This document shows, piece by piece, positions 2,000 to 59,153 of a stretch of DNA of 64,000 nucleotides (position 1 is the stretch's first letter; each line of letters starts with the position of its first letter). The DNA is from Minisyncoccota bacterium (GTDB taxonomy: Bacteria > Patescibacteriota > Minisyncoccia > Phycocordibacterales > JACRKE01), in NCBI GenBank assembly GCA_041660505.1, contig JBAZWG010000001.1, positions 179,979-243,978 on the forward strand, in the 5' to 3' direction. A program made the position numbers and the translations under genes. The notes beneath the pieces are model-generated. The model did not search any database, was not told the origin of the DNA, and saw nothing but the letters and a program-made list of their open reading frames with translations.

Positions 2000-3847
2000 C
2001 TACTTCATCACCTTCAAGAAGACGTCGTGCGGGATGTTTACCACTCCCATCGCTTTCATCTTCTTCTTGCCTTTCTTCTGCTTTTCGCGGAGTTTCATTT
2101 TGCGCGTGATGTCGCCGCCGTACAGGTAGTCTGTGACATCCTTCTTCATACCCGACAAATGGCGTGACGACAAGATGCGCCCGCCGGCCTTGGCCTGGAT
2201 CTTGAAGTCGAACATCTGTCGTGGGATGACATTCTTAATCTTCTCAACAATCTCTTCGGCCTCCTTTTGCAGACGTGCCCGAGAGACAATACGTGAGAAC
2301 GCGGGCACAACTTCATCGGCAATAAGCACCTCAACCTTGATAACGTCAGCCTCGCGCATATCGGCGAAGGTATAAGCTATGGACGCATAACCGGAAGTGA
2401 CGCTTTTAATCTCGTCGAAGAAGTTGCGCATTAGCTCGCGCAAAGGTATCTGAATAGATAATGCCGTACGATGATCGCCGAATATTTCTGTATTCACAAC
2501 CGTCGCCTCATGTTCATGGAAGAGCTGGACGAGCGAGCCCATATATTCCGGCGGGGTTATAATCTGCGCATCCACCCAGCGCTCATACACCTTCTCAATC
2601 TGCGACTCTTCGGGGAAGGCCGTTGCGGAATAGACCTTTTCTCTTGTTCCGTTAGTTCGCTGGATTTCGTAACTAATAGTCGGTGAAGTGATTATGAGTT
2701 CCAGATTAAATTCACGTCTTAATCTTTCTGAAATAATTTCGAGATGCAACATGCCGAGAAATCCGCAACGAAATCCCCTGCCGACAGCCCCTGCCGCTTC
2801 TTCTTCGAAGGAGAGTGCGGAGTCTTGCAAGCGCAATCGCTCAAGCGCTTGGCGGAGCGTCATGAAGTCGTCTTGATTCTCCGGATAGACCGATGCCCAG
2901 ACTACAGGCCGCGGCTCGCTATAGCCCGGCAGGGGCGCAAGTGGTCGTGAGGCTGTGGTAATAGTATCGCCGACGCGCGCGGCGCCGGTCTTCTTGATGC
3001 CGGTCACCAAATATCCGATCTCACCGGGCGATAGCATTTCGCACGGTTTCTTTTGCGGAGAAAAGATCCCGAGCTCCAGCACGGTAAATTGGTCTTTACC
3101 GGCAATGAATGCAAGCGCGTCCTTTTTGTGGATCATGCCGTCTATGACACGAACGTACACTATGAGTCCGGCATGAATATCGTATTCGAAGTCGAAGACT
3201 AGCGAACGGCTGGAATTGAGCGGGAAAGGTCTCTCCTCAGCTTCAGGCAGAGGTGGGTCCTTGCCCACGTCCGACTGCGGAGCAGGAACACGCTCAATAA
3301 CCGCGTCCAAAATTTCTAAAACGCCGGCGCCGGTCTTGCCAGAAGCGGCCAAAATATCTTTCTCTTCGCAATGCAAAAGTTCGATAATCTCCGCCTTTAC
3401 TTCCTCAACTTGCGCAACAGCAAGATCTATCTTGTTAATAACAGGAATTATCTTTACCCCCAATGCCTGCGCGGTGCGAAGTGTCGTTAAGGTCTGGGCC
3501 TGCACACCTTGCGTCGCATCTACAAGGAGTATCGCGCCTTCAACGGCCTGCAGTGCTCGCGAAACCTCGTAAGAGAAGTCGATATGCCCGGGCGTGTCAA
3601 TGAGGTTGAGTTCATAGGAGTTAGAAGTTGGGAGATCTCCTAACTTCTGTTTGTACTGCATCCGCACCGGTTGCATCTTGATGGTAATCCCCCGTTCCCT
3701 TTCCAGATCCATCATATCGAGTACCTGCTCTTTCATCTTGCGCTTCTCGATGGTCCCTGTGAGCTCCAACATGCGGTCCGCCAAGGTTGACTTACCGTGG
3801 TCAATGTGAGCGATTATTGAGAAGTTGCGTATATGCGCAGTATCCAT
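2000..3847 (-). CDS. lepA: elongation factor 4 (LepA)
   Basis: 615 aa. N-terminal GTPase motifs AHIDHGKST, DTPGH and NKID are present, and the C-terminal LepA-specific domain spans the full length. Confidence 0.95.
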   Translation of the reverse strand: MDTAHIRNFSIIAHIDHGKSTLADRMLELTGTIEKRKMKEQVLDMMDLERERGITIKMQPVRMQYKQKLGDLPTSNSYELNLIDTPGHIDFSYEVSRALQAVEGAILLVDATQGVQAQTLTTLRTAQALGVKIIPVINKIDLAVAQVEEVKAEIIELLHCEEKDILAASGKTGAGVLEILDAVIERVPAPQSDVGKDPPLPEAEERPFPLNSSRSLVFDFEYDIHAGLIVYVRVIDGMIHKKDALAFIAGKDQFTVLELGIFSPQKKPCEMLSPGEIGYLVTGIKKTGAARVGDTITTASRPLAPLPGYSEPRPVVWASVYPENQDDFMTLRQALERLRLQDSALSFEEEAAGAVGRGFRCGFLGMLHLEIISERLRREFNLELIITSPTISYEIQRTNGTREKVYSATAFPEESQIEKVYERWVDAQIITPPEYMGSLVQLFHEHEATVVNTEIFGDHRTALSIQIPLRELMRNFFDEIKSVTSGYASIAYTFADMREADVIKVEVLIADEVVPAFSRIVSRARLQKEAEEIVEKIKNVIPRQMFDFKIQAKAGGRILSSRHLSGMKKDVTDYLYGGDITRKMKLREKQKKGKKKMKAMGVVNIPHDVFLKVMK

Positions 3848-3886
3848 CGCACCAGAATACTCTAAATAAGGCCAAAATACAATTTC

Positions 3887-3905
3887 TAGAAGGCCTCGCC
3901 TTCTA
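3887..3905. repeat. 19-nt hairpin TAGAAGGC-CTC-GCCTTCTA (REP-like), copy 1
   Basis: Perfect 8-bp stem with a 3-nt loop. Identical copies occur at 4560-4578 and 5693-5711. This copy overlaps the stop codon of the Y1 transposase. Confidence 0.8.
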
Positions 3906-4529
3906 TTTATGGTCTATGGTTATGTGGTTTATCGCCGAAAAGTCGTGCTGGCCTGTGATCCACCTGCGATAATCTTTTGGAAGTTCAGTAAAATCATTAA
4001 GAGCTTCTGCCGTAAGGATTTTATCGTACTTTTTCTGATTGCAAAAATCGTGATAGCTTGACCATCGGTACTCGCTCAAATGTTCAATCTCTCGAGGGTT
4101 TAGGTGAATATAGTCGATTACTCCGAGCAAGTATTCTTCGTCGTCAACTAACTTACTTTTAAACGGTCCTTGGAAAAGCGCTCCGCTCCTATCATTCTTT
4201 TCATTAAAGTACATTGTATACGCCGTACCCAACCTTTGCATAAATCTGCTGATTCCCCCTTCTCGACATTCATGCAGAAGCAAATGGAAATGATTGGGCA
4301 TCAAACAGAATGCGACAACGTCTGCAAGTCGCTCCTTTTTCTCATCTTCTTCTGCCCTTTGAGAAAGGACTTCGAATGTATTGGGACTTTGAACTTCTGT
4401 GTCGTTTAAAACTTGGAGATACAAGAGAAATCTTTTGTAGTCTTTATCCTCCTCAAAAATAACACGCTTATCAACGCCGCGATTGTATACATGATGAAAT
4501 GAATCCTCTTCAATTGGTGCGCGATCCAT
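3903..4529 (-). CDS. IS200/IS605-family Y1 HUH transposase, REP-associated (RAYT/COG1943-like)
   Basis: Motifs HVYNRGVDKRVIF, HUH-like MPNHFHLLL, FNEKNDRSGALFQGPF and C-terminal YIHLNP...EYRWSSY match the COG1943/RAYT family as recalled. The gene is flanked by identical hairpins. Confidence 0.75.
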   Translation of the reverse strand: MDRAPIEEDSFHHVYNRGVDKRVIFEEDKDYKRFLLYLQVLNDTEVQSPNTFEVLSQRAEEDEKKERLADVVAFCLMPNHFHLLLHECREGGISRFMQRLGTAYTMYFNEKNDRSGALFQGPFKSKLVDDEEYLLGVIDYIHLNPREIEHLSEYRWSSYHDFCNQKKYDKILTAEALNDFTELPKDYRRWITGQHDFSAINHITIDHK

Positions 4530-4559
4530 ATCGCAATTATCTCACAGTTTCCCATTTTT

Positions 4560-4578
4560 TAGAAGGCCTCGCCTTCTA
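4560..4578. repeat. REP-like hairpin copy 2
   Basis: TAGAAGGCCTCGCCTTCTA, identical to copy 1. Confidence 0.8.
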
Positions 4579-4689
4579 TGAATTGATCGCTCATTGGTTC
4601 AATATGCCCTTTATTGTCTTGACATATATAGTCTTATATGCTACAATATACGGAGTAGTGTCTCAAGCCTGTTTGGGCTATCAGGGCTG

Positions 4690-4780
4690 AGAATCAATAA
4701 TTACTGTCCTTTGCCCCTTCCTTTGGGAAGTAAGCGGACAGTCCCTCCTTGACCGATTAATCACCGACAAGGAGGACAGT
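4690..4780 (+). promoter_or_regulatory. structured 5' leader with anti-SD/SD pairing
   Basis: GGACAGUCCCUCCUUG ... CAAGGAGGACAGU, where CCUCCUU is complementary to the SD AAGGAGG placed 6 nt before the ATG at 4781. Additional hairpins CUUCCUUUGGGAAG and ACUGUCC/GGACAGU are present. Confidence 0.4.
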
Positions 4781-5032
4781 ATGTTTCAGAAGTGCAGGCT
4801 CTGTAAAAAGGTATATTGGACCGAGTTCCAGTTCGGCGAGCTTGACTTCGAGGGTCGAGAGTTTAACAGGTGTTACGACTGCTTGCTGCAGTTAAGCAAC
4901 AATCCTGATTGGGCTCATCAGATGTCACTCGAATCAACTCCTCCGGCTGAATTCCTTCCATGCGGTCGCTGTGGCCAACTTGACGACTGGTGCCAGTGCG
5001 ACTATACCGACGACACTGAAGCAGACAGCTAA
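4781..5032 (+). CDS. small Cys-rich protein (putative zinc-ribbon), hypothetical
   Basis: 83 aa with CxxC...CxxC and CGRC...CQC motifs. A strong SD AAGGAGG precedes the ATG and an intrinsic terminator follows. Confidence 0.5.
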   Translation: MFQKCRLCKKVYWTEFQFGELDFEGREFNRCYDCLLQLSNNPDWAHQMSLESTPPAEFLPCGRCGQLDDWCQCDYTDDTEADS

Positions 5033-5050
5033 TCTGCTCGTACAGGAACC

Positions 5051-5099
5051 CCTTTGGTTAAAACCAATGCGTCAAGGGTTCCTTTTTATTTGTCCGGAT
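5051..5099 (+). terminator. rho-independent terminator
   Basis: AGGAACCCUUUGG...CAAGGGUUCCU hairpin followed by UUUUUAUUU. Confidence 0.6.
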
Positions 5100-5158
5100 A
5101 ACAGACTAATCGCACATTCCCCTTTTTAAAAGGTTTAACCTTCTTTCTATGGTCGCTT

Positions 5159-5656
5159 TTATCTATTGATAATAGTGACTATTTCGCTCGCTGTTTCTTC
5201 CGGAGTTTGATCCGTGCTGTCGATTTTATGATTGTTGGGGAAATGAGATTCAGTTCTATACTTCTCGTTATTCTCGATGGCTGTTTTGTAATCTCTAAAG
5301 CCACTATCTCTGGTTTCTGTTAAAACTCTTTGCTTGAGAATTTCATCATCTCTCAGATAGAGAGTAAAAACTATGGTTTTATACCTTTTCAGTTGCTCTA
5401 AAAGTTTTTCCGATACTCCCCCGCCTATAATTACATTATAGTAGTCGTGTTTTGCATAGTTTTTTAACAAGAGAACTAGATTTTCAACAGTCAACTCTTC
5501 TTCTGCCTCAGAAACATTGGTCCAATCACGATTTAAGTGAAATCCTCGTATCCAATCAAAATCAATATTAACCGAGTTAAGTTTTTCTTTCAGTAGTCTG
5601 GTGAGTGTAGTTTTTCCTGTGCCCTGGGCACCACGAATGAAGATAAAGTTGTACAT
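5159..5656 (-). CDS. P-loop NTPase / kinase-like protein (AAA_33-like)
   Basis: Walker A FIRGAQGTGKTT sits at the N-terminus. The 165-aa size and fold are like small nucleotide/antibiotic kinases. Function is not assignable. Confidence 0.55.
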   Translation of the reverse strand: MYNFIFIRGAQGTGKTTLTRLLKEKLNSVNIDFDWIRGFHLNRDWTNVSEAEEELTVENLVLLLKNYAKHDYYNVIIGGGVSEKLLEQLKRYKTIVFTLYLRDDEILKQRVLTETRDSGFRDYKTAIENNEKYRTESHFPNNHKIDSTDQTPEETASEIVTIINR

Positions 5657-5692
5657 ACTATTTCAGATGACGAGTGTCAGTCGGTGCCACTT

Positions 5693-5711
5693 CTAGAAGG
5701 CCTCGCCTTCT
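5693..5711. repeat. REP-like hairpin copy 3
   Basis: TAGAAGGCCTCGCCTTCTA, identical to copy 1. Confidence 0.8.
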
Positions 5712-5713
5712 AA

Positions 5714-8281
5714 TTATTGTGCGACGGGGGGAGATTTGCGTTTTTCTGGCGCTGGGGCTGGGGCGTTCGTTAGCGCATCACGACCGGCTTCGAGGTTGCC
5801 GAGAATGCGCTTCACGTCGGCATTGTCCGGGTTGGACTCTGCGATCTCCTTGAACTGCTGAATAGCGTCATTGGTCTTGCCGGTCTTGGCCAAGCTTAGG
5901 CCCAAGAAATACTTAGCATTTGAATAGCTCGGGTTAATCTGGACAGCGGCACCGAGCACGCTTATGGCACCGGCATAATCATGCTTCATGTACTTCAAGA
6001 ATCCGAGCTGGAATAGTGCGCCGATATCCTGCGGAGCAAGCTCTGCGGCTTGTTGCGCATTCTTAATAGCGGCATCGAGATTCCCGGCATCAGCCTCTAT
6101 CTGTGAGAGCAAGAAGATGGCGGCGGCGTAGTTACTCTTCTCTGCCAGCGCCTTACTGATCATCTCGCGCGCCTTGGTTTTGTCGCCCTTCGCCACTTCG
6201 AGTCTGGCCATCGTCAAGTAGATCTGGGGATTGTGAGGATTAAGCGCAAGCGCGGCTTTATATTCTGCCACTGCGCGATCATAAGCGGCCGGTAGTATAG
6301 GTACCAATGATTCGTACACGCGGCCGAACGAAAGATGATTCTGGTAATTGGCGCCGTCGGCCTTCACTGCGTTAGAACCGCTCTCAATTGCCTTTGCGAG
6401 CACAGCTTGGAACTGTTTTTGCAATTCTTCTTTCGGAACGTCGGATGTGTTCATGAGCTTGCTCATCTCCAGGACATGCAGATCGGTAAGTGAACGATAG
6501 AAGACATCGGAACCATCAAGGCTGACTGCTGTTTCTAAGTATTTAGACGTTGCCACCAAGTCGCCGCTCGTGTTGCTGACAATAAGAGCGGATTGGAAAT
6601 TGGCGAGCGCTATGTATTTCTTGACCGAGAAGAATAGGAATGATACCGAGACAAGCATCAGTACAACAATGCTTAATACTCCGACGAAGCTGAAGCGCGG
6701 GCTGTTGAAGAAAGACAGTGTGAATTCACCGCTGAATTTAGTAGTGACCAGACTGCTCACAAATATACCTGTAGCGGCGAAGGCTAGCGCGAGGACTACC
6801 GTGTCAGGCACATAGACCACCGCCATTATCCACAGGAAAAGTGACGATAAGAATGATACCGAGAGCACGCCGTGCGTCAGATGATCGCCGGAAAGTTTAA
6901 AGAGTGCCTTGATACCGAAGTAAAGGTAGGACACCAAGAGGAAGAGCCAGGCAATCAATCCGAGGATTCCTGTCGTAGCGACGAAGGTCGGTATATATCC
7001 GACGCCGGCGTTGAAGTCGGTGCTCCAGAATACCGTATCGTTAACACCAGCCGGCTTATAAGTAAGCCAGTCATTAGAGAAGGTATTCGGACCGCTACCC
7101 GTCAAGGCGTGTTTGCTTAAGACCTTACCGACAACCTCAAATGTCGAGCCCCAAGCCGGACGAACCTCGAGCGAACTTATCTGATTGGCACCGAGATAAC
7201 TACCTATCTGTGTATACAAGAAGAAGCAAAGTATCGAGATTAGCAACACATAAAGGGCCGGTGATGAAATAATCCCCAGCTTCTTGGAATAATAAAGAAC
7301 CGCGAAGCCCAGAACAACGATTATCAGCGTGACGAGGTAGGGCGAGTAGTTATGGGCAATAAGCCACGGCATGCCGAAGGCACTAAAAAGCAAGAATACG
7401 ATGAAACTTATAAGCACGGCCGGAGCCGGCTTGGCACCAAACATCTTCTGCATAGAAAGCCGATAGACAAGAAGAACTAGCGCAATAACGCCGAGCACTG
7501 CCCAAGCAACGTTGAAGTTTACGAGAAACATAAGAAGCAGTCCGACCGCCCCTCCTATATATAGGAGTCTGGGAGCATGAGACTCGATGAGTTCCAAAAG
7601 AGACATGCACACAACAACGCCTAGAGCGAAAAATGTGCCGAGGTTGTTCCACTTGCCGAGCAAGTTGTCGGTAACATTCGGCAAAAGGCCGAAGACGGTC
7701 GTCCCATGCCCGAACATCGGAACAACTCCCTGAAATGTCGGAAAAAGTCTTAGGAGTTCGAGAACCGCCAAAATCATAAAGGAGAGCATGAATACTTTCA
7801 CTGCTGTCGCCAAACGTTTCCTTGATTGGAAATAGATTGCGGAAAGAAGTAGCAAGGCAACGAAGACGAACAATGCGGCAACAGTGTTGGTCTCTGTCCC
7901 TATCCCCCAGAATGTAACATTGAACATGCCGGAGGCTATCGATGATATGAGCGCGGTCAATGCAACAAGCCCGCCACCAAGCAGTATTGGGCTCTTTGGC
8001 ACCGAAAGGATACCGTCCTCTAGGCGCGCGCCGAGCCAAAAAAGAAACGCCAAGCTGACACCGATAACAAGCGTTGCCTTCTTGGCGAGATCAAGCGGGA
8101 CAGAAGCAAAAGGAAGAATTATGAAAGGCAGGAGGAAAATAACGGCAATGAGCAACCAACCGGCAATATTATCAAAAAGCGGAGCGTAACTGGGGCGCTT
8201 TTTCTTCGCCGAGCTTTCGTTACCACCAAGTTCGTCATTAAGGGAGGAGAGCATCTCTTTAGCCAAGAGTTCGTCATTCAT
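5714..8281 (-). CDS. O-antigen ligase (Wzy_C)-like polytopic membrane protein with C-terminal TPR repeats
   Basis: 855 aa with more than 10 predicted TM helices. The C-terminal third carries repeated TPR-like units (AxxYxxALxLNP...). Confidence 0.7.
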   Translation of the reverse strand: MNDELLAKEMLSSLNDELGGNESSAKKKRPSYAPLFDNIAGWLLIAVIFLLPFIILPFASVPLDLAKKATLVIGVSLAFLFWLGARLEDGILSVPKSPILLGGGLVALTALISSIASGMFNVTFWGIGTETNTVAALFVFVALLLLSAIYFQSRKRLATAVKVFMLSFMILAVLELLRLFPTFQGVVPMFGHGTTVFGLLPNVTDNLLGKWNNLGTFFALGVVVCMSLLELIESHAPRLLYIGGAVGLLLMFLVNFNVAWAVLGVIALVLLVYRLSMQKMFGAKPAPAVLISFIVFLLFSAFGMPWLIAHNYSPYLVTLIIVVLGFAVLYYSKKLGIISSPALYVLLISILCFFLYTQIGSYLGANQISSLEVRPAWGSTFEVVGKVLSKHALTGSGPNTFSNDWLTYKPAGVNDTVFWSTDFNAGVGYIPTFVATTGILGLIAWLFLLVSYLYFGIKALFKLSGDHLTHGVLSVSFLSSLFLWIMAVVYVPDTVVLALAFAATGIFVSSLVTTKFSGEFTLSFFNSPRFSFVGVLSIVVLMLVSVSFLFFSVKKYIALANFQSALIVSNTSGDLVATSKYLETAVSLDGSDVFYRSLTDLHVLEMSKLMNTSDVPKEELQKQFQAVLAKAIESGSNAVKADGANYQNHLSFGRVYESLVPILPAAYDRAVAEYKAALALNPHNPQIYLTMARLEVAKGDKTKAREMISKALAEKSNYAAAIFLLSQIEADAGNLDAAIKNAQQAAELAPQDIGALFQLGFLKYMKHDYAGAISVLGAAVQINPSYSNAKYFLGLSLAKTGKTNDAIQQFKEIAESNPDNADVKRILGNLEAGRDALTNAPAPAPEKRKSPPVAQ

Positions 8282-8409: not shown

Positions 8410-8785
8410 ACAAAAGACCCCTTGCGGGGCCCCTTGGCATGCGATAAGCCGAATTCTGTTTGGATATTCATTTATCTAGGCTCTATATTACTATAGGGCT
8501 CAAGCGGCACTCTGGCCGGAACTTTAACTCCGATGTTAAGGTCTCTCCTCCTCATGGGAGGTGAGACCTTTAGCTGTCAACATCGGATGTTAAAGTTCCG
8601 GCCAGCACGGCCTTGCACTCACGTAGGAATTTTGCCGTTTCAGCCGGACTTAACCGGGTCGTTTCTGTTCTCATCCCTATGATTACTCACGACGGGCGTT
8701 ACCCGCTACGCGTACCCACTAAAGGGTTAAGTGTTCGGACTTTCCTCATCCCGCCGAGGCGGGACGCGAATATCTCGCATACTTG
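8410..8785 (-). ncRNA. rnpB: RNase P RNA, bacterial type A
   Basis: Minus strand contains the P4 5' strand GAGGAAAGUCCGAACAC. It also carries GGUAACGCC, ACAGAAAC, and a 3' region CCUAGAUAAAUGAAUAUCCAAACAGAAUUCGGCUUAUCGC, which matches E. coli M1 CCUAGAUGAAUGACUGUCCACGACAGAACCCGGCUUAUCGG as recalled. P1 pairing is UAUGCGA/UCGCAUG. A terminator CCCCGCAAGGGG + UUUUGUUUU follows. Confidence 0.85.
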
Positions 8786-8821: not shown

Positions 8822-11170
8822 TTACTTCATTGCCACGGGTGCTAGGTCTATCTCGCAGACGCCGGCCACACAGGCGAGCTCGGCTTTGGATGTCGTATAG
8901 TCGTCGTATTCATACAAGACTATCTTCGAGAAGTCTATCGGTGGGAATTTCTTGGCCAGTTCTTCGTACCGCTCTTTCGTAATCTCTTCATACGGCGCGA
9001 GCTGATAAACGTGATTATTGCGCGGGAGGAATGAGAGACCGCCGATTATATCCCAATTCTCATAAACCCAAGAGCCAACTTTGAACCATTCATCGTCAGA
9101 AACAGACACGGTACAGGATGGGTTGTGCTCGGTGTAATTAAGCTTAATCATCTTCCAATACTCAAGCAGGTCGAGAGCAGAAACTTCGTTCTTTGTCACT
9201 GACCCTTCCGGCGCTTTGACGGGGAATTCGACCACGAACGTGGTCGCGGTCGCCGCATTCTGGCCCACCTCCGGATGATACGGCACGCCCAAATCGCGCA
9301 TCATATGGAAGACGGGGCTGAATGATTCCACGCGGACGCGGCGGATGTAGTAAGGCGCGTGGCGCGGGTGCATGCCGGACGATGAGTCCAAGAATTGCGA
9401 GGTGTTACCGGACGGCTTGATACAAGTTATGGCAGTCGACTCATTAATACCGAAGCGTTTGGCGTATTTTTTATTCGTCTCGATGGCAGCTTCGCGCATT
9501 TTGCGCAACACCTTGGGATTCTTAAGTGCCGGACAATCGTACATGCCGGTGATGCCGACGCCAAGAAGCGCTTCTTCTTCGCAATTCTTCTTCCATTCCG
9601 GTGAGAGATATTTGAAGTCGGTAAGCATCGCCTGATAGGTGCCCAGAATAGTGGCGATCTTAGTTTTCTGTATCAAAGTCCTTTCTGTATCCTCCGGTCG
9701 AGCTGTCACTTGGGTGAGGTTACAGAACTGCTTCGACTTGAGCACAATCTCTCCGCACGGATTCATGCCGGCATAGCGATAATCTTTCTCAAACTTCTTC
9801 CATCTTCTATCCGGAAGCTGTTTCTTGAGCGAGCCTCGGTTATAAATACCGCGTTCGCCGGAGCCTGCCTTGACGAGATTAATCCACTCATCCATAAGCT
9901 CTTCCATCCCCGGCTTGTTAATATACGCCACCGAGTTATTGGCCATACTGCGCTGAGGCTCGGTAATATAAAATTGACCGTTCTTGGCTTCGCGCATTTC
10001 GAGATCATCGAGATCGGAGAGTGAGATAAGTGCCGCCCGGCGCGAACCGCCGATAACGACGCTCGTGCCAATCTTGCAGACAATATCATGAATATCAATC
10101 GGGGCCATATGCCTCCCCTGCTTTCGCAATATTTTACCCTTGACGAACTCGAGGAGCTCGCGCAATGGTTCCGGACCGGAAGCGCGGCTACCCATGGTGA
10201 CAAGCCTGGCGCCCTGCGGACGAACCTTGGAGAAGTCGAACTTTACATCTTTGCCTGATGCCCAAACGTTGCAACCATGGACGAGCGCGTCGGCCCAACC
10301 CTCTTTAGAATCTCCGACCACGTGCGTCGGCAACATCTCCCCTGTCTGGGGCTCAATAATCGGGAACTGTTCGGCGGTCTGACGTTCAACAGAGAAGCCG
10401 AGGCCGGACCCGCACATCAATATATAGATAATCTCGCCGAAGTCTTGCCACTTCGTCGGTGCGATATAAGAGCAGTTGTAGGCGCAGATGTTGGTATAAC
10501 GGCAAGCAGGACCGGCGCTGAATTGTAAGCGGGCGGAGCCGAGCACATCCAGCCTTAACATAGACTCGCCTATTTCTTTATATTCCGCCTCGGTCAATTT
10601 ATTCTTGACCTTCTCTTTCATAAAGCTCATATAGCGCTCAACAGTCTCAACCCAAGCCTCACGGCGGCCCTTCTCGGGAATCCATTTGGAATAAGCGGTG
10701 TAATACACGTATTCTTGCAGGGGATTTTTGAAGTATTTTTTACTCTCGGCTACAAGCTTCCGAACCTCTTCCGGGACGGTACGTTGGGCTATTCTCTGTT
10801 TGGCATGACGTTCGCGGAATAAAATGTAAGACTTGGCGGTAACAACGAAGTCCATTAACATCAGTTCTTTCTCCACGATATCTTGCACGCCTTCGACTGA
10901 CGGCACATAGCCTTTATCTTTCTCCACGATACCCATAAGCTCGCGGACGACGCCGGCGCACACCATCTTGGCCGCCTCCGGACTGCCCTCTTTGGTATCA
11001 TTGAAGGCTCTTTGGATGGCATTGGTTATGAACTGCGGGTCGAACGGTACTATCCGGCCGTCGCGCTTCCTTATCAACTTCGGCAACTTCATACCCTTGA
11101 AACCGCCTGCGTTTTTAGCTTTCTTGTCCTGACTCTCTTTCTTCGCTTTCGCGATAGGTTTTTTGGGCAT
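8822..11170 (-). CDS. nrdJ: ribonucleotide reductase, class II (adenosylcobalamin-dependent) with N-terminal ATP-cone
   Basis: 782 aa. An ATP-cone (KRDGRIVPFDPQFITNAIQRAF) and the active-site motif NPCGEI are present. There is no adjacent nrdB-like gene, and a C-terminal Cys pair is present. Confidence 0.8.
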   Translation of the reverse strand: MPKKPIAKAKKESQDKKAKNAGGFKGMKLPKLIRKRDGRIVPFDPQFITNAIQRAFNDTKEGSPEAAKMVCAGVVRELMGIVEKDKGYVPSVEGVQDIVEKELMLMDFVVTAKSYILFRERHAKQRIAQRTVPEEVRKLVAESKKYFKNPLQEYVYYTAYSKWIPEKGRREAWVETVERYMSFMKEKVKNKLTEAEYKEIGESMLRLDVLGSARLQFSAGPACRYTNICAYNCSYIAPTKWQDFGEIIYILMCGSGLGFSVERQTAEQFPIIEPQTGEMLPTHVVGDSKEGWADALVHGCNVWASGKDVKFDFSKVRPQGARLVTMGSRASGPEPLRELLEFVKGKILRKQGRHMAPIDIHDIVCKIGTSVVIGGSRRAALISLSDLDDLEMREAKNGQFYITEPQRSMANNSVAYINKPGMEELMDEWINLVKAGSGERGIYNRGSLKKQLPDRRWKKFEKDYRYAGMNPCGEIVLKSKQFCNLTQVTARPEDTERTLIQKTKIATILGTYQAMLTDFKYLSPEWKKNCEEEALLGVGITGMYDCPALKNPKVLRKMREAAIETNKKYAKRFGINESTAITCIKPSGNTSQFLDSSSGMHPRHAPYYIRRVRVESFSPVFHMMRDLGVPYHPEVGQNAATATTFVVEFPVKAPEGSVTKNEVSALDLLEYWKMIKLNYTEHNPSCTVSVSDDEWFKVGSWVYENWDIIGGLSFLPRNNHVYQLAPYEEITKERYEELAKKFPPIDFSKIVLYEYDDYTTSKAELACVAGVCEIDLAPVAMK

Positions 11171-15593: not shown

Positions 15594-18500
15594 TTGCCGA
15601 ACACTGTTACGAGCATAGCGCGCGTCGCAGGACCGACGACTCCGTATCCGATCGCTCCCCTTTTCGCGATACCATACTTCTCTTGGAATTTCTGGACAGC
15701 TTGAAGTGTCAGATTGCCGAAGTAGCCGGTGACTTGTCCATTCTTATATATAGACTTATCTTGAGCCAATAGTCTCTGGAGCAGAGTAACACTGCTACCT
15801 CTAGAACCAATGACCAACACAGAGTTGATGCTTGAAGCGCCCTTAATAGTTGCGGGTACTCGAACTTGTGTTTGTGCTCTTTTAGAAATTACGGGGTGGA
15901 GAAAAATGAAACTGTCTGCCGGCGTAACTGTGGGTACTACTTTCTCCATCACCTTAGGCTTAGCATCACTAAACAATCCCATCACCCAGCCGTAGATAGG
16001 GCCGTTGTTGCTAGCGAGACGGACCACCTCAGGCACGGCTGTTAATGTGCCGAAGGTCGTGAAGTGGTAAGTTAAGACTTTCGTCTGCAGGCCATTACTG
16101 ATACCGCATTCGCCGAACGGTGTCGGATCTGTCGGAGAGGAATATGTACCGGCGCAAGTTGAGAGCGTCTGCCAAGTGTCTGAGCCGGCCATCTTGAATA
16201 CCATTGTCTTAACAGTGTCGAATGTGAGAGTAACTGCTTTGTCAAATATGAGAGTAACATCGGCTGAACCGATCTGTATAGCATCGCCGACCAAAAAACC
16301 GGATGGCGAAGTGCCAGCACTACTACCCGTAATGGGCGGGGTTATTTTGCCGTCCCAGTCGGTGGGGCCCATTATGGACGTGGCATCAGGGATAGACAAA
16401 CTTGTGCCGGAGACTGCCGAACCGGTAATGACTACTGGAGAGCCAGTCGTACCGGAATTAAGAGTGAAGCCGGTGCCGACTGTGACAGTCTTATCCGCAA
16501 TCGTTTGGGGTTGAGTCAAGTCGACAGAGACAAGCGAACCGCTCGTGAATGCGCCAAGCGGCAAGATTGAACCATTAAGAGTTAAGTTGCCACCAGAGAT
16601 TGATGACAGACTAGTGGACGCAGACAACGGGGAGGATTCGGAAAGGACCAGTGTTGTAATAGAACTCGGCATGGTGACACCGCCAGAAGAAGTTCCTTCG
16701 AACACGACCGGTTCACTGCCACCGGTTACGGTGGTACCGCTCGTCGTCAGGGATTTGAAGTTTCTTGTGGCAGAAGTGTTAACGTTACCGGCAAGGTCGT
16801 TGCAGGTGACAGTCAAAGTATGAGCTGTGCCTGTTATGCCGGTAATTGCGCTAGCAGTATGAGTGGTTCCTCCGGTCGTGGCGAAGGCAACCGAGTCCGC
16901 GCCATCGTATGAATATGTGCAGGTTGCCGCTTCATTGGTTGTGACTTGCGGGGTAGTTGAAGTGGCAATCATAGAACCTTCTGTCGGAGTCGTGATGCTG
17001 ATCGTAGGAGTAGACTTATCGAAGGTGACGCCAGAGCCGGAAGTGATAGCCGTCACCGCAGAAGCGGCGTTGCCAACGATATCTGTCGGAGTGATACTAA
17101 ACTGTATCACCTGTTGGGTGTCGCCGGATATCATCGTGGTCGAGGCCGTCCATGACGTACCGGAGCCTGTAATATTCGCACTGCGGCTGGCAATAAGAAC
17201 AGTAGGAGTTGTAATGCTTTCGTTGGCAGTAAATGTTAAGGTGACGATATCGTTCGTTGTGGCTCTGGAGGCGGTCGTATTGTTGTTCGAGGCGATCGTG
17301 ACAGGAGAAAGCGTCGGGGCAGATTTATCGAAGGTTACATTGGAACCGGAAGTGACAGCGAGCGCGGTCGTGCCGACATTCCCCGCCAAGTCAACCGGTG
17401 TAATGGCAAAGCTAATGGCGCTTTCGGTATCGCCGGTCTCCATCGTCTGCGTGGCGCTCCAGGATGAATTCGAACCTGATACACTGGCCGCTCTGCCAGC
17501 GATGGTTACCGTTGGCGTCTTGATATTCTCATCTGTTGTAAATATGAGCGTCACAATATTGGCCACCTTCGCAAGTGTGTTGGTCGTGTTGTTGGAAGAT
17601 ATCGTGACGGTTGACACTGCCGGTGGGGTTTTGTCGAAGCGAACATTAGAGCCCGACGTGATGGCGGTGACGGCGATGCCGGAGTTGCCTGCCATATCAA
17701 TAGGTGTTGCCGAGAACGTAACTGTGCCGTTCGTGTCCCCCGTCTCCATCGTGGTCGAGGCTGTCCACGACGTGCCAGAGCCAAGGACAGTTGCAGGGCG
17801 ACCGAAGATTGTGACAGTCGGCGTGGCGATGGCTTCAGAACTTGTGAACGTAAGGGTCACAATATCAGCGACTTTTGCGAGCGTGTTAGTAGTATTGTTA
17901 GAAGATATAGTAACAGGCGAGAGGGTCGGTACGGTTTTGTCAAATACGACATTCAGACCTGTTGTGATGGCGGTAACAGCCGAGCCTTCGTTCCCCGCCG
18001 CATCTGTCGGCGTGATGGAAAATGCCACGGCCGTTTCGCTATCGCCGGACTGCATCGTCGTCGAGGCCGTCCACGTCGTACCCGAACCGAGTACAGTTGC
18101 GCTCCTGCCGGCAATGGTTACCACCGGCGTTCGCAAACTCTCGTCTGCCGTGAATGCGAGGGTAACGACATTATCTGTTTTCGCCAGAGTCGTCGATGAA
18201 TTGGATGATGAGATAGTAACAGTTGGCACGGTTGGAACTGTTTTATCAAAAGTGACAGCCGAGCCGTTGGACGTTGCCGTGACGGGCGTGGCCTCATTCC
18301 CTAACGTATCCGTGGCTGTCACCGAGAAGGTAACCACTGCTTCAGTATCTCCTGCTTGCATCGTGGTCGAGGCTTGCCATGTCGTGCCGGAGCCGGTGAT
18401 GTTCGCACCTCTACCATCGATGGTTACAACGGGAGTTTGAATGGATTTATTTGCTGTGAACGAGAGTGTAACGATGTCGTCTGTCTTTGCGCGCGTAGTG

Positions 18501-21171: not shown

Positions 21172-21313
21172 AGAATATGATATTAGCAAATATTCCGTAT
21201 TCGTCAAAATAAATCTGCCGAGGTTCGACCTCGGCAATACGGATAAAAACACAGAAGCCCGGGCGGAATGAAGATTTTAACCTCCTTCTCCGCCTCGGGC
21301 TTCGTAAAGAACA

Positions 21314-22722: not shown

Positions 22723-22813
22723 CTATCGCACGGCACGTGCGAAACTTGCTTTATCCTACAGATTTCCGTCAATAACGCAAACAGCGGAGGTTCAACCTCC
22801 GCTGTTCTGTTGT

Positions 22814-55839: not shown

Positions 55840-57924
55840 CTACTCCAATACCCGCAAGATGAAGGCATACTCGAAGGCCAGTTCACGTAGAGCGTTGTAA
55901 CGGCCTGATGGACCGCCGTGGCCGGCTCCTAGGTGAGTTTTTAACAAAATAACGTTGTCATCGGTTTTAAGGGCGCGGAGTTTGGCGACCCATTTGGCCG
56001 GCTCCCAATAAGCGACGCGGGCGTCGTTCATCCCGCCGAGGACGAGCATATGCGGGTAGGCCTTTGCCTCAAGATTGGTGTACGGCGCGTAAGATTTGAT
56101 GTAGTCAAAGTAGGCGCGCTCGTTCGGATTGCCCCATTCTTCATATTCACCTACAGTCAGAGGTAGGGATGAATCCATCATCGTGTTAAGACTGTCGACG
56201 AATGGCACATGTGCCACGACGGCACGGAAGAGCTCCGGTCGCAGATTGGCTACAGCGCCCATGAGCAAGCCCCCAGCACTACCGCCAGCCGCGATCAACT
56301 TTTCCGGTTTAGTGTATTTTCTTTTAATCAACTCTTCAGCAGAGGCGATAAAGTCGAGAAAAGTGTTTTTCTTTTTTAGAAATTTGCCTTCATGATACCA
56401 GCGCCGGCCAAGCTCACCTCCCCCGCGCGGGTTGGCGAAGGCCATAACATAACCGCGATCGGCAAGCGAGAGCCTCGTCGAAGAAAACCATAAATCGTAC
56501 GAAATTCCATAAGCACCGTAAGCCGTAAGCAGTGTCGGGCTAGCTCCATCTTTTTTTATGAGCGCGGTTTTATAAAAAATGGAGACAGGAACTTTTGTCC
56601 CATCGTGAGACGTCGCGTCGAAGCGTTCTACTGTATATAAAGATGAGTCATAACCGCCGACGACTTCCTCCTGCTTGCGTACGGTGCGTTCGTGAGTGCG
56701 CATATCATAATCATACACAGTTGACGGTGTGCGCAGTGACGAGTAGGTGAAGCGTAAAGTTTCCGAGTCATATTCCGGATTACTGCCGACACCAAAGGCA
56801 TAAGAAGCATCGTCGAAAGTAATGTCGCGCCAGCTCTTCTTCTCCAGATCATAGATCTTTAGGAATTGCAGGCCGTGTTTGCGTCCTTCGAGAACGATGA
56901 AATTTTTAAAGGCATCTACATCGTTAATCGTCACGTCGTCATTATGCGGGACGAATTCCACCCAAGAACTTTTCGGCGCGTCGAAGCTCTTCGCAAAAAG
57001 GACTTTAAAGTTTATTGCGTTCTCGTTGGTGATAATATACACACCCGCCTCATGATGCTCTACATCGTACTCTATATCCTGCGCGCGCGGTATAAATACA
57101 GAAAATTTCTCTTCCGGTTTATCTGCATCCATGTATTGCGTCTCGCTCGTTGTATAGCCGTCGGAATTAATAAAGAGATATTTCTCGCTCCGGCTCTTCG
57201 ACACATAGGTCACGAAGCGTGAATCTTCTTCTTTATATATAAGCGCACCAGCCTCATTCCCGAGTTTGCGCCGATGTATCTCCGCCGGGCGCTTGGTCTC
57301 ATCAAGTACGGAATAGAAATAAGTTGCGTTATCATTTGCCCATTCGAAGTTCGCAGCGACACCAGTTACGGTATCGGCAAACAGTTCGCCTGTCTCTAAA
57401 TTCTTGAAATATAAAGTGTAGATTTCGTCACCTGAAGTATTAACGGCGTAGGCCAGAATTTTATGATCCGGCGAGACTGATAATGTGCCGATAGAAAAGA
57501 ATTCGTGATCTTTCGCCAGTTCATTCTCATCCAAAAGAATTTGCTCTACTTCACTATCAATCGGTTTACGACAGTAGACGGGATACTGCTTGCCTTCTTC
57601 GGTGCGTAAGTAGTAATAAAAAATATCTATTCTTTCGGGCACCGACATGTCTGTTTCTTTAATCCGGCCGAGCATCTCTTTATATAATTTCGTCTGTAGC
57701 TCTTTGGTCTCTGCCATCACCGCATCGGCGTATGAATTTTCTGTCTTGATATATTTAAGCGTATCGGGGTCGTTAATATCCTTAAGCCAGTTATATTTGT
57801 CCTCATATTTTTCGCCATGATAGTCATGAGCAAAATCCAGCCGTTTGGCGACCGGTGGCGTAATCCCCTTTTTCACGTATTCCGAAGTGCTGAACATAGT
57901 TTTGTTATTATACCACAAAATCAC
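55840..57924 (-). CDS. S9-family serine peptidase (prolyl oligopeptidase / oligopeptidase B-like)
   Basis: Beta-propeller N-domain plus a catalytic domain with nucleophile motif GGSAGG and Asp/His downstream. The start may be at an internal Met (MFSTSEY). Confidence 0.8.
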   Translation of the reverse strand: MILWYNNKTMFSTSEYVKKGITPPVAKRLDFAHDYHGEKYEDKYNWLKDINDPDTLKYIKTENSYADAVMAETKELQTKLYKEMLGRIKETDMSVPERIDIFYYYLRTEEGKQYPVYCRKPIDSEVEQILLDENELAKDHEFFSIGTLSVSPDHKILAYAVNTSGDEIYTLYFKNLETGELFADTVTGVAANFEWANDNATYFYSVLDETKRPAEIHRRKLGNEAGALIYKEEDSRFVTYVSKSRSEKYLFINSDGYTTSETQYMDADKPEEKFSVFIPRAQDIEYDVEHHEAGVYIITNENAINFKVLFAKSFDAPKSSWVEFVPHNDDVTINDVDAFKNFIVLEGRKHGLQFLKIYDLEKKSWRDITFDDASYAFGVGSNPEYDSETLRFTYSSLRTPSTVYDYDMRTHERTVRKQEEVVGGYDSSLYTVERFDATSHDGTKVPVSIFYKTALIKKDGASPTLLTAYGAYGISYDLWFSSTRLSLADRGYVMAFANPRGGGELGRRWYHEGKFLKKKNTFLDFIASAEELIKRKYTKPEKLIAAGGSAGGLLMGAVANLRPELFRAVVAHVPFVDSLNTMMDSSLPLTVGEYEEWGNPNERAYFDYIKSYAPYTNLEAKAYPHMLVLGGMNDARVAYWEPAKWVAKLRALKTDDNVILLKTHLGAGHGGPSGRYNALRELAFEYAFILRVLE

Positions 57925-59152
57925 CTCCTTGATAAGCCCTCAAAAACTGTGATTTATGGTCTAAAAATGTGTCATTCAAAATAGACTGCCTGATATTTTT
58001 TACTAAGTTAACAAAGAAAAATAAATTATGAATAGAGGCTAGTGTGTACGCAATCAGTTCGTTGGCTCTGAATAGATGCGCAAGATAGGCGCTGGTATAA
58101 TGCTTGCAGGTGTAGCAGACGCAGTCTGGTTCTATCGGCGTTAAGTCTGTTCTATACTTTGCATTCAACACACTGATACGGCCTTGCTTGGTGTACAGCG
58201 CGCCATTGCGCGCTTCTCGCGTGGGGCTGACACAATCGAAAGTGTCGACGCCGTTTTCGACACCCAGGAATAAATCTTCTACTGCGCCTATGCCAAGCAA
58301 ATGTCGCGGTTTATCTTCGGGCAAGATTTTATTCACCCAGCTCACTGCCGTACCCATATCTGCTTTATCAAATGATCCACCGATGGCATAGCCGTCGAAA
58401 TTCATGGAACTAATTTTCTTTGCGCTTAACTCTCTTAAATCCTGATGCCTACCTCCCTGAACTATTCCAAATAAAGCCTGCGGATTTTCTAAGGTTAAAC
58501 CTTGGGCATCTAGAAGGTTTAACCTTCTATGCTCGGCAAGACTTCTTTCAGCCCAGCGATGCGTTCTTTCTAATGACTGTTTCTGATACTCATATGATTC
58601 GGTCGGTGAGGTGCATTCGTCGAAGGCGAGGATAATATCAGCGCCCAAGTCGTGCTGGATCTGCATCGACTTCTCTGGTGTGAAGAAATGTTTAGAGCCG
58701 TCTATATGCGAGCGGAACTCGACGCCGTCTTCGGTGATTTTTACGAGAGATTCTTTTGGTACCGATAAGGTTGAACCTTTTGGATGCTCAAGGTTCAACC
58801 TTCCTGGTTCAGAATTCAAAATTTTCCCAATCCCTTTGCCGAAGCTCGCACCTAGTGAGAACACTTGGAATCCGCCCGAGTCGGTAAAGGTCGGCCCCGG
58901 CCAATTCATGAATTTATGCAAGTCGCCGGCTTTTTTAACGAGCTCACTCCCCGGTTGTAGATATAAGTGATAGGTGTTGGCGAGCACAGCATCGGCTCCA
59001 AGCTCTTTTACTTGTTCTGGTAGCAACGCCTTAATCGTCGCTTTGGTGGCCGGCGCGATGTATGACGGCGTCAGGATGTCGCCATGCGAAGTAGAAATAA
59101 CTCCCGCTCGCGCGAGAGTATTCTTGAGTTTCTTTTCGATACGGAAGTTCAT
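57908..59152 (-). CDS. tgt: queuine tRNA-ribosyltransferase
   Basis: ORF trimmed to MNFRIEKK so that it does not overlap the gyrB stop. Tgt motifs and the zinc site CVCYTCKHY...H are present. Two in-frame 36-nt hairpin insertions lie within the CDS. Confidence 0.85.
   Translation of the reverse strand: MNFRIEKKLKNTLARAGVISTSHGDILTPSYIAPATKATIKALLPEQVKELGADAVLANTYHLYLQPGSELVKKAGDLHKFMNWPGPTFTDSGGFQVFSLGASFGKGIGKILNSEPGRLNLEHPKGSTLSVPKESLVKITEDGVEFRSHIDGSKHFFTPEKSMQIQHDLGADIILAFDECTSPTESYEYQKQSLERTHRWAERSLAEHRRLNLLDAQGLTLENPQALFGIVQGGRHQDLRELSAKKISSMNFDGYAIGGSFDKADMGTAVSWVNKILPEDKPRHLLGIGAVEDLFLGVENGVDTFDCVSPTREARNGALYTKQGRISVLNAKYRTDLTPIEPDCVCYTCKHYTSAYLAHLFRANELIAYTLASIHNLFFFVNLVKNIRQSILNDTFLDHKSQFLRAYQGGDFVV
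58490..58525. repeat. AAGGTTAAACCTT-N10-AAGGTTTAACCTT hairpin inside tgt
   Basis: Perfect 13-bp stem. It is in frame and encodes RRLNLLDAQGLT. Confidence 0.8.
58767..58802. repeat. AAGGTTGAACCTT-N10-AAGGTTCAACCTT hairpin inside tgt
   Basis: Perfect 13-bp stem. It is in frame and encodes GRLNLEHPKGST. Confidence 0.8.
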
Positions 59153-59153
59153 G

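Follow-up and report, generated by a model that had tools for sequence, protein, structure and literature searches.

The whole stretch of DNA analysed here, a 64-kb piece of the genome of an ultra-small bacterium (Patescibacteria, Paceibacterota) to which we refer as the window, contains between lepA and a gene for a tetratricopeptide repeat (TPR) membrane protein a 1.83-kb segment with three small genes. One of these encodes a Y1 HUH tyrosine transposase-like protein of 208 amino acids (aa) and is flanked by short DNA hairpins, one copy of which recurs at the far end of the segment. The Y1 gene and these hairpins, which we compare below with repetitive extragenic palindromes (REPs) and REP-associated tyrosine transposases (RAYTs), are the subject of this analysis. 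Their positions in the window are as follows.

3887–3905: hairpin c1, TAGAAGGCCTCGCCTTCTA, exact match; lepA-side boundary of the 1.83-kb insertion
3903–4529, minus strand: Y1 HUH tyrosine transposase-like gene, 208 aa, RAYT class 2/subclass 2.1-like; catalytic candidates H80 and H82 (NHFH) and Y140 (YIHLNP), with the SS motif at residues 157–158
4560–4578: hairpin c2, TAGAAGGCCTCGCCTTCTA, exact match; 30 nt upstream of the Y1 ATG
5127–5145: degenerate hairpin c4, TAAAAGGTTTAACCTTCTT; 14 nt past the stop codon of a kinase-like gene
5694–5712: hairpin c3, TAGAAGGCCTCGCCTTCTA, exact match; 1 nt after the stop codon of the TPR gene; other boundary of the insertion

The Y1 protein and its flanking hairpins

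The 19-mer TAGAAGGCCTCGCCTTCTA forms an 8-bp stem with a 3-nt loop, CTC, that lies on the plus strand in all three exact copies. By chance, 0.03 copies would be expected in the window, and the observed count was reached in 0 of 100 shuffles; no further copy was found in the 64 kb even when up to 3 mismatches were allowed. As single-stranded DNA (ssDNA), the intact hairpin has a folding energy of -6.8 kcal/mol (z = -4.1). A previous interpretation of this DNA from its letters alone, the sequence-only reading, had described three identical hairpins, two at the ends of the Y1 gene and the third 1.1 kb away, beyond two further genes, and this layout, in which the third copy closes a three-gene block, was confirmed. 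Its end coordinate of 5711 is one base short, the block ending at 5712, and the degenerate copy c4 had been overlooked. This fourth copy, which emerged from a repeat search (family D1), shows 73% identity over 30 nt including flanks, is one mismatch away from AGAAGG-N5-CCTTCT, and has the same TTTAA centre as a copy in tgt that is described below; its fold is weak and not convincing (z = -0.9).

The TAG stop codon of the Y1 gene constitutes the first three bases of c1. By eye, the 3' arm of c2 occupies the -35 position for an extended -10 element, TGAGATAAT, that is located 6 nt before the Y1 ATG, and a promoter reading of this region, with a secondary regulatory role for the hairpin, is possible. 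Inverted flanks of 26–39 nt are present in the window and in two related loci of the same genome (L002 and L003), whereas the motif GGGGWSAS is absent. Rfam contained no family for the hairpins. Their interpretation as terminators was rejected: c1 and c3 fit a loose terminator pattern only on the plus strand, on which no gene comes to an end there, and a simple scan found sites with this pattern in the number expected from shuffling.

The motifs that had been named for the 208-aa protein are present in the open reading frame (ORF) at 3903–4529, and the anticipated match to a Y1 transposase profile was obtained with Pfam PF01797 (Y1_Tnp), which covered residues 66–142 with 31.7 bits (cut-off 23, E = 1.8e-7). 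The score for the NCBIfam equivalog NF047646 (REP_Tyr_transpos), 46.1 bits, was under the cut-off of 80. A search of the PDB with the single sequence gave no relevant match, and a profile search with the Y1 family gave only weak ones, 4er8 (E = 0.09) and ISDra2. Because these sequence searches were almost blind, the solved neighbours of the protein came from a fold search. An AlphaFold2 model built from 27 homologues (predicted local distance difference test score of 89.7) had as its top Foldseek match 4er8, the Escherichia coli TnpA_REP protein with a REP hairpin (E = 8e-6, probability 1.0), followed by the transposases of ISDra2, IS608, and IS200; 4er8, 2xm3, and 2a6m were all matched at a probability of 1.0. 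Both elements that define the HUH fold, the HxH motif and a COOH-terminal helix with the catalytic tyrosine, are present in the model, with H80, H82, and Y140 invariant. Across the 27-homologue alignment, the invariant positions were N79-H80-x-H82, Y140-x-H142-x-N144, and S157-S158. The COOH-terminal tail consists in the model of about 50 aa of short helices, and no Pfam match to a helix-turn-helix (HTH)-like domain (Bac_DnaA_C, HTH_23, or HTH_28) was found at E values up to 0.1. PADLOC and PHROGs contained no family for the protein.

The motif set of the Y1 protein, NHFH / LFQG / YIHLNP / WSSY, was compared by eye with Table 1 of Quentin et al. 2018 (PMC6006769), not with the hidden Markov models of that paper. 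In that table, TnpA_Y1 subclass 2.1 is characterised by NH[YF]H, FQ, Y[IV]HLNP, and an SS tail motif, and subclass 1.1, the IS200/IS605 TnpA proteins, by the tyrosine motif Y[IV]ENQ and the HuH motif DH[VI]H. The subclass 1.1 motifs were not matched by the Y1 protein, which has NHFH and YIHLNP instead, the latter conforming to the class-2 tyrosine motif Y---NP. As judged from its sequence and its predicted structure, the 208-aa protein is a genuine Y1 HUH enzyme of the RAYT class-2 type, and by its motifs it would be assigned to RAYT Group 1/subclass 2.1 (TIRYT-like) and not to IS200. At a threshold of E ≤ 1e-30, 2,027 cluster representatives (50% identity) matched the family profile. The closest matches, where the source was named, were from metagenome-assembled genomes (MAGs) of Paceibacterota/Parcubacteria, and no relatives of the locus were found among viral contigs.

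A classical autonomous insertion sequence of the IS200/IS605 group, in which the 692-bp unit c1–Y1–c2 or the whole 1.83 kb would move by peel-and-paste and solo hairpins would be decayed ends, is rather unlikely. Such elements (IS200, IS608, ISDra2) share the Y1 HUH fold with the locus, and the 692-bp unit is of IS200 size (about 700 bp), with a subterminal hairpin at each end and both loops on one strand. In IS608, too, the end hairpins have their loops on the same strand. The Y1 protein nevertheless lacks a Y...Q motif, YIHLNP being of the class-2, RAYT type; the hairpins sit at the ORF ends and leave almost no room for the guides of IS608 and its cleavage offsets of ~19 nt and ~10 nt, no such spacing being evident; there is no tnpB; and no Y1 paralogue lies elsewhere in the window.

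Cognate hairpins and an empty insertion site

We compared nine distinct Y1 loci with protein identities of 42–100%: the window, L002, L003, L005/6, L007, L008, L009-14, L019, and L020. L002 and L003 belong to the same genome as the window, and the six more distinct homologues (42–58% identical) come from other metagenomes. A Candidatus Paceibacterota MAG encodes, on a contig of 719,008 bp, an identical protein and two further members of the family (66% and 56% identity). In all nine loci, the gene has its own palindrome on both sides, one upstream and one at or after the stop codon. The upstream hairpin of the six further homologues lies between -38 and -114 nt relative to the ATG, and the hairpins are sometimes inverted dimers. 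In L002, TAGAGAGTT[G/C]AACTCTCTA occurs three times, with two copies flanking the gene as 34-nt inverted repeats and the third lying past a 96-aa ORF; in L003, GGGGTAAGGCGAAACCTTAC is contained in 39-nt inverted repeats, 90% complementary, at both gene ends.

Alignment of 36 hairpin copies (35 unique), centred on the symmetry axis, revealed a common inner core, [AG][AG]GG-N5-CC[CT][CT], of the AAGG-N5-CCTT type. Pairs 3–6 from the centre were 100% paired, and pairs 7–9 were 71–94% paired by means of GC, CG, TA, and AT alternatives; compensatory pair types were seen at positions 4–9 (for example GC 11, CG 11, and TA 7 at position 7). Given that pairing drops beyond position 9, to 40–54% from position 10 outward, which corresponds to background, the conserved unit is a hairpin of about 19 nt with an outer stem that covaries by locus. 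In the window, the foot of the hairpin is TTAG or CTAG, and elsewhere it is GGTA/CGTA, CTCG, or others; the tetranucleotide GT[AG]G was not found. In cognate REP–RAYT pairs, the repeat covaries likewise (PMC6006769), and RAYTs and TIRYTs have one cognate repeat per gene (PMC6006769, PMC3733652), a pattern that is matched by paralogues 56–66% identical with a hairpin of their own each. These comparisons support the hairpins as cognate partners of the Y1 protein.

Hairpins also extend into Y1 coding sequence. At 10164–10182 of L009, a cognate hairpin lies in frame within the Y1 gene (PRGSTSS), and the L019 hairpin encodes the last residues of the protein P0080 (...SERGSTSLK). The COOH-termini of P0003 (...LEGSTF) and P0061 (VKSPTLNI) are probably hairpin-encoded as well, the former back-translating to the TAGAAGGTTCAACCTTC type of tgt and c4.

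The exact 19-mer, whose confinement to this locus the sequence-only reading had named as evidence against a REP-like or IS200-like module, was not found elsewhere in the 80 kb of this genome that were read (the window and a further 16 kb). Collections of genome and metagenome contigs gave one unrelated match each, one of them intergenic in a Betaproteobacteria MAG and the other within a coding sequence of an unrelated contig, and both were regarded as chance matches. This local occurrence would suit a mere coincidence, in which hairpins and Y1 gene happen to be adjacent and the 19-mer is a local duplication or the recombination scar of an unrelated insertion. Such an explanation is exceedingly improbable, being effectively refuted by the same gene–hairpin layout in nine of nine homologous loci with covarying stems, and also at odds with the chance expectation for three copies given above.

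Close relatives for the comparison of the site were selected by LepA identity (85–87% for L015/L016 and L018, 82% for L017). In L015/L016 and L018, an orthologous gene for the TPR membrane protein is positioned 66–75 bp from lepA, and neither the Y1 gene nor the kinase gene nor the Cys-rich ORF of the segment is present between them; the comparison of relatives envisaged in the sequence-only reading thus found the module missing. In the window, the extra 1,826 bp (3887–5712) start with c3, 1 nt past the stop codon of the 855-aa TPR gene, and end with c1, beyond which GAAAT... and GTATTCT are partly alignable by eye with the short spacer of the relatives. The GC content of this block is 0.416, compared with 0.50–0.51 in the flanking genes. 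Since the TPR gene directly adjoins lepA in the relatives, 3887–5712 represents a hairpin-bounded insertion. In L017, an unrelated 159-aa ORF (9338–9817) fills the spacer. This spacer occurs in three states, with that ORF (L017), empty (L015 and L018), or with the Y1 module (window), which suggests a small insertion hot spot.

The GC content of the Y1 gene is 0.41 versus 0.49 for the window, and in nine of nine loci it is 6–12 percentage points below that of the surroundings, even in a genome with a GC content of 33% (0.254 vs. 0.327). This low GC content, the site that is empty in close relatives, and the three family members in one 719-kb genome are compatible with an IS200-type element, for which, however, an identity of 56–66% between paralogues contrasts with an average of 99% between IS200 copies (PMC6006769).

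Dispersed palindromes and the nature of the module

Palindromes with the core GGTTN[AG]ACC and two or more additional stem pairs number seven in the window, compared with 0.13 expected. Six related-core palindromes lie outside the Y1 locus in ~62 kb, four of them intragenic, and four of the seven constitute two inverted dimers in tgt (57908–59266, minus strand). The sites outside the Y1 locus are as follows.

21216–21236: palindrome TGCCGAGGTTCGACCTCGGCA, probably intergenic; family membership tentative
22780–22806: palindrome AACAGCGGAGGTTCAACCTCCGCTGTT, downstream of groEL; family membership tentative
58491–58529: inverted dimer AAGGTTAAACCTT + TAGAAGGTTTAACCTTCTA, in frame in tgt, encoding ...RRLNLLDAQGLTLEN...
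58767–58802: inverted dimer AAGGTTGAACCTT + AAGGTTCAACCTT, in frame in tgt, encoding ...GRLNLEHPKGSTLS...

The tgt palindromes are of the AAGGTT-N-AACCTT type, and the dimers fold as 13-bp REPIN-like hairpins (z = -3.7 at 58491 and -4.2 at 58767). The copy TAGAAGGTTTAACCTTCTA and the locus hairpin are identical except for the five central bases, and the centre of this copy is that of c4. Relative to solved Tgt, the dimer at 58491 falls within gaps totalling 10 inserted residues, and that at 58767 in a stretch of ~33 residues that is missing from the solved protein (query residues 96–130 corresponding to chain residues 101–102).

Similar insertions were apparent in lepA. Among relatives 82–92% identical, LepA has two hypervariable insertion sites, the first of which contains in the window (3623–3648) the 26-nt palindrome AGAAGTTAGGAGATCTCCCAACTTCT. 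At the second (codons ~195–215), L015 carries at 10549–10585 the in-frame inverted dimer CTTGGAGGTTGAACCTCCAAG-c-GGAGGTTCAACCTCC; in both L015 and L018 this is a perfect in-frame hairpin dimer (NLEVEPPSGGSTS), the L018 stems showing compensatory changes relative to L015 (GGCTGAGCC), and in L017 the dimer is absent from the site. The same dimer type is contained in tsaD of L015 (called span 17138–18334), a placement by gene span and not by frame. In the 7 kb of L003, the hairpin cognate to the paralogue P0023 (H3) is present in six copies, including one in frame in a 387-aa ORF (3398–3419, GEGETLP), one that is intergenic (4248–4269), and the inverted dimer SGKVSPYPVGEGETLPG in argS (5816–5863). 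The argS case is weaker than those of tgt and lepA, with a 6-residue gap around the dimer in comparison with the ArgRS of a relative. Palindromes of the form TATGGCGGAGGTT[C/T]AACCTCCGCCATA were also noted within called Peptidase_M14 gene spans (L015 3108–3134 and L018 2554–2582), and by this placement they appear to be conserved intragenic copies.

Taking together the fold and motifs, the covarying hairpins that flank the gene, the empty site, and the dispersed and in-frame copies, we consider it probable that a mobile module of the REPtron/TIRtron type was recently acquired at 3887–5712, consisting of a class-2 Y1 HUH ssDNA nuclease-ligase and its own 19-nt recognition hairpin. The best reading is that it is neither a classical IS200 element nor a vertically fixed, high-copy REP system. 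That the module is mobile, or was so recently, is indicated by the empty site in relatives, the foreign-looking composition, and the diverged paralogues. Neither of the two forms that the sequence-only reading had offered is favoured: a minimal IS200-like element does not agree with the tyrosine motif, with the divergence of the paralogues, or with the lack of near-identical copies in the accessible sequence, nor would it be expected to leave hairpin dimers dispersed without a gene remnant, and a domesticated REP system does not agree with the empty site, with a 19-mer that is local in 80 kb, with the NCBIfam score, or with the absent GT[AG]G foot.

In the proposed mechanism, the hairpin would be extruded where the DNA is single-stranded, as in the lagging-strand template, and bound by the Y1 enzyme, the inner stem AAGG...CCTT being the determinant shared between loci and the outer stem the one specific to each locus. 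The enzyme would cut beside the hairpin with Tyr140, a metal being held by His80 and His82, and rejoin the strands, whereby monomers, inverted dimers, or the DNA between hairpins might be excised and copied to new sites. Four features of this genome would be traces of such activity or of recombination between hairpins: c1 and c2 enclose the Y1 gene; c2, c4, and c3 delimit the two passenger genes; tgt contains older copies of a related TTNAA-centred hairpin; and two diverged paralogous Y1 genes have a hairpin family each. Catalysis, the ssDNA substrate, the extent of the moving unit, and the role of the Y1 protein in producing the intragenic copies are all inferred parts of this model.

Several observations weigh against this interpretation. 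The restriction of the exact 19-mer to one locus has been mentioned. The loops of c1–c3 are co-oriented, yet c1 and c2 appear to have their flanks (CAATT / ATGG) in opposite orientation. Family-like palindromes such as that at 22780 may be ordinary terminators, in that case the one of groEL. Since the spacers of the relatives have diverged, the junctions and cleavage positions cannot be read to the nucleotide. The context of the homologue P0110 was unchanged in all places examined (6 shown and 12 similar ones collapsed, from 24 contigs), so that this gene looks stable and not mobile. Finally, the closest kinase homologue with a long contig (L021, 71% identity) has neither hairpins nor a Y1 gene nearby.

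In an alternative explanation, which we regard as quite improbable, the Y1 protein would be a domesticated host factor, the hairpins mainly its operator or regulatory sites, and the other palindromes unrelated structural or terminator elements. On this view, the upstream hairpin overlaps the -35 region and the downstream one closes the transcript, and the conserved placement of the hairpins with respect to start and stop codons fits such a role. The terminator-like pattern of c1 and c3 in the simple scan, the stable context of P0110, and the finding that RAYTs generally behave like housekeeping genes (PMC5581495) point in the same direction. The pattern of c1 and c3 was, however, on the strand where no gene ends and at the shuffled frequency, and the module is missing at the same site in close relatives and foreign in composition. 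Moreover, palindromes with the same core occur as in-frame inverted dimers that are polymorphic for presence, which argues for DNA insertion and not for regulation. A vertically inherited single-copy gene is likewise contradicted by the empty site, the three paralogues, and the low GC content.

We compared the putative mobile module with systems described elsewhere. Its nearest counterpart by motifs is the TIRYT/TIRtron of Di Nocera et al. 2013 (PMC3733652), where TIR denotes terminal inverted repeat, which corresponds to subclass 2.1 of Quentin et al. 2018 (PMC6006769) and to RAYT Group 1 of Bertels et al. 2017 (PMC5581495). Shared features are the signature NH[YF]H / FQ / Y[IV]HLNP / SS, a length of ~210–240 aa, about two diverged copies per genome, signs of horizontal transfer, and a gene flanked by inverted repeats that can self-pair and form small repeat families. 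The repeats described here differ in consisting of little beyond the 19-nt AAGG-N5-CCTT hairpin without GGGGWSAS, the protein in lacking a COOH-terminal domain of the Pfam HTH/DnaA_C type, and the host in being a member of the Patescibacteria. In the work of Quentin et al., a REP-like sequence was not found for subclass 2.1 (PMC6006769). From other phyla, Di Nocera et al. reported intragenic in-frame REPs as well as TIRYT genes flanked by TIRs (PMC3733652).

The REPtron of E. coli TnpA_REP (RayT/YafM) provides the best structural match (4er8) and shares the class-2 Y..NP motif, and TnpA_REP/REPIN systems resemble the module in having a gene between cognate hairpins, one hairpin family per paralogue, dispersed inverted dimers, and occasional intragenic in-frame copies, which are known for REPs (PMC3733652). 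In contrast to them, the hairpins here have no GT[AG]G foot, the protein is under the NCBIfam equivalog cut-off and has an extra COOH-terminal tail of ~50 aa, the copy number in the available sequence is low, and the module is a recent insertion and not a vertically inherited single-copy gene. Rickettsia palindromic elements and intragenic REPs are similar in that palindromes lie at variable or loop positions of housekeeping genes (here tgt, lepA, argS, and tsaD), in many cases as dimers and in some at two sites of one gene. RPE-1 of Rickettsia is approximately 100–150 bp long. The units described here differ in being 13–21 nt, with dimers of ~40 nt, and in having a core in common with the hairpins that flank a Y1 gene.

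To our knowledge, nearly all REP/RAYT and TIRtron systems characterised so far are from Proteobacteria, Cyanobacteria, and Bacteroidetes, and in the literature searched we found no description that pairs RAYT or REPIN with Patescibacteria or the candidate phyla radiation (CPR). The module looks like a REP/RAYT-type system that is new for Patescibacteria and otherwise of a known category. It couples an enzyme of a subclass for which hairpins had not been reported to a clearly cognate, covarying hairpin; it resides in a host genome of ~0.7 Mb, a size at which little selfish or semi-selfish DNA would be expected; and it offers a clean contrast between filled and empty sites. With 208 aa and 19 nt, it is also a compact enzyme–substrate pair for biochemistry of the RAYT type. 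An in-frame palindrome core that is present or absent among close relatives provides a testable mechanism for some protein insertions in CPR bacteria. More tentatively, and with considerable doubt, we suggest that Patescibacteria may carry a widespread, undescribed hairpin/Y1-nuclease system (~2,000 clusters) that would copy palindromes as monomers or inverted dimers, including in frame into tgt, lepA, argS, tsaD, and the nuclease gene itself, and whose hairpin pairs might move cargo. If so, it would be a significant source of lineage-specific peptide insertions in CPR housekeeping proteins.

Passenger genes and neighbouring features

The part of the insertion between c2 and c3 contains the Cys-rich ORF and the P-loop kinase in the order given by the sequence-only reading. 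Its features are as follows.

4619–4647, plus strand: sigma-70 promoter close to consensus (TTGACA-17-TACAAT, TG-extended), directed towards the Cys-rich ORF
4781–5032, plus strand: Cys-rich ORF, 83 aa, passenger; four CxxC/CxC pairs, zinc-ribbon-like
5045–5090, plus strand: terminator-like stem AGGAACCC...GGGTTCCT with TTTTT behind it, downstream of the Cys-rich ORF; read from the sequence
5159–5656, minus strand: P-loop kinase-like gene (AAA_18), 165 aa, passenger; Pfam AAA_18, 40 bits

The promoter at 4619–4647 has 11 of 12 matches in a promoter scan and is followed by a leader of ~135 nt. This leader (window 4619–4780) has an RNA fold with a z of -1.9 and no match in Rfam, and it might act in cis as a regulatory element of an uncharacterised kind. 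The Cys-rich ORF matched no family in Pfam, NCBIfam, PADLOC, or PHROGs. The stem at 5045–5090 was overlooked by the simple terminator scan because its loop is longer than 8 nt.

The kinase gene is the segment with the lowest GC content (0.36). PADLOC VakA gave a weak, full-length match to it (E = 6e-6), and its family comprises 78 homologues, of which the few with a named source are from Paceibacterota/Patescibacteria. The kinase and the adjacent zinc-ribbon ORF might form a defence or toxin-like pair. Joint mobility of such cargo with the hairpins is not backed by L021: given that the kinase homologue there is without hairpins, there is no independent evidence of hairpins moving cargo, and a 165-aa kinase in L005 is unrelated. 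An integron cassette was also considered and rejected. Integron attC sites are imperfect palindromes of 57–141 nt that function with a tyrosine-recombinase integrase, whereas the hairpins here are perfect and, at 19 nt, far too short, and no integrase is present among the ORFs at 3000–7000 of the window. Just downstream of the TPR gene, at 8433–8782, the window contains an ordinary bacterial RNase P RNA of class A (126.8 bits).

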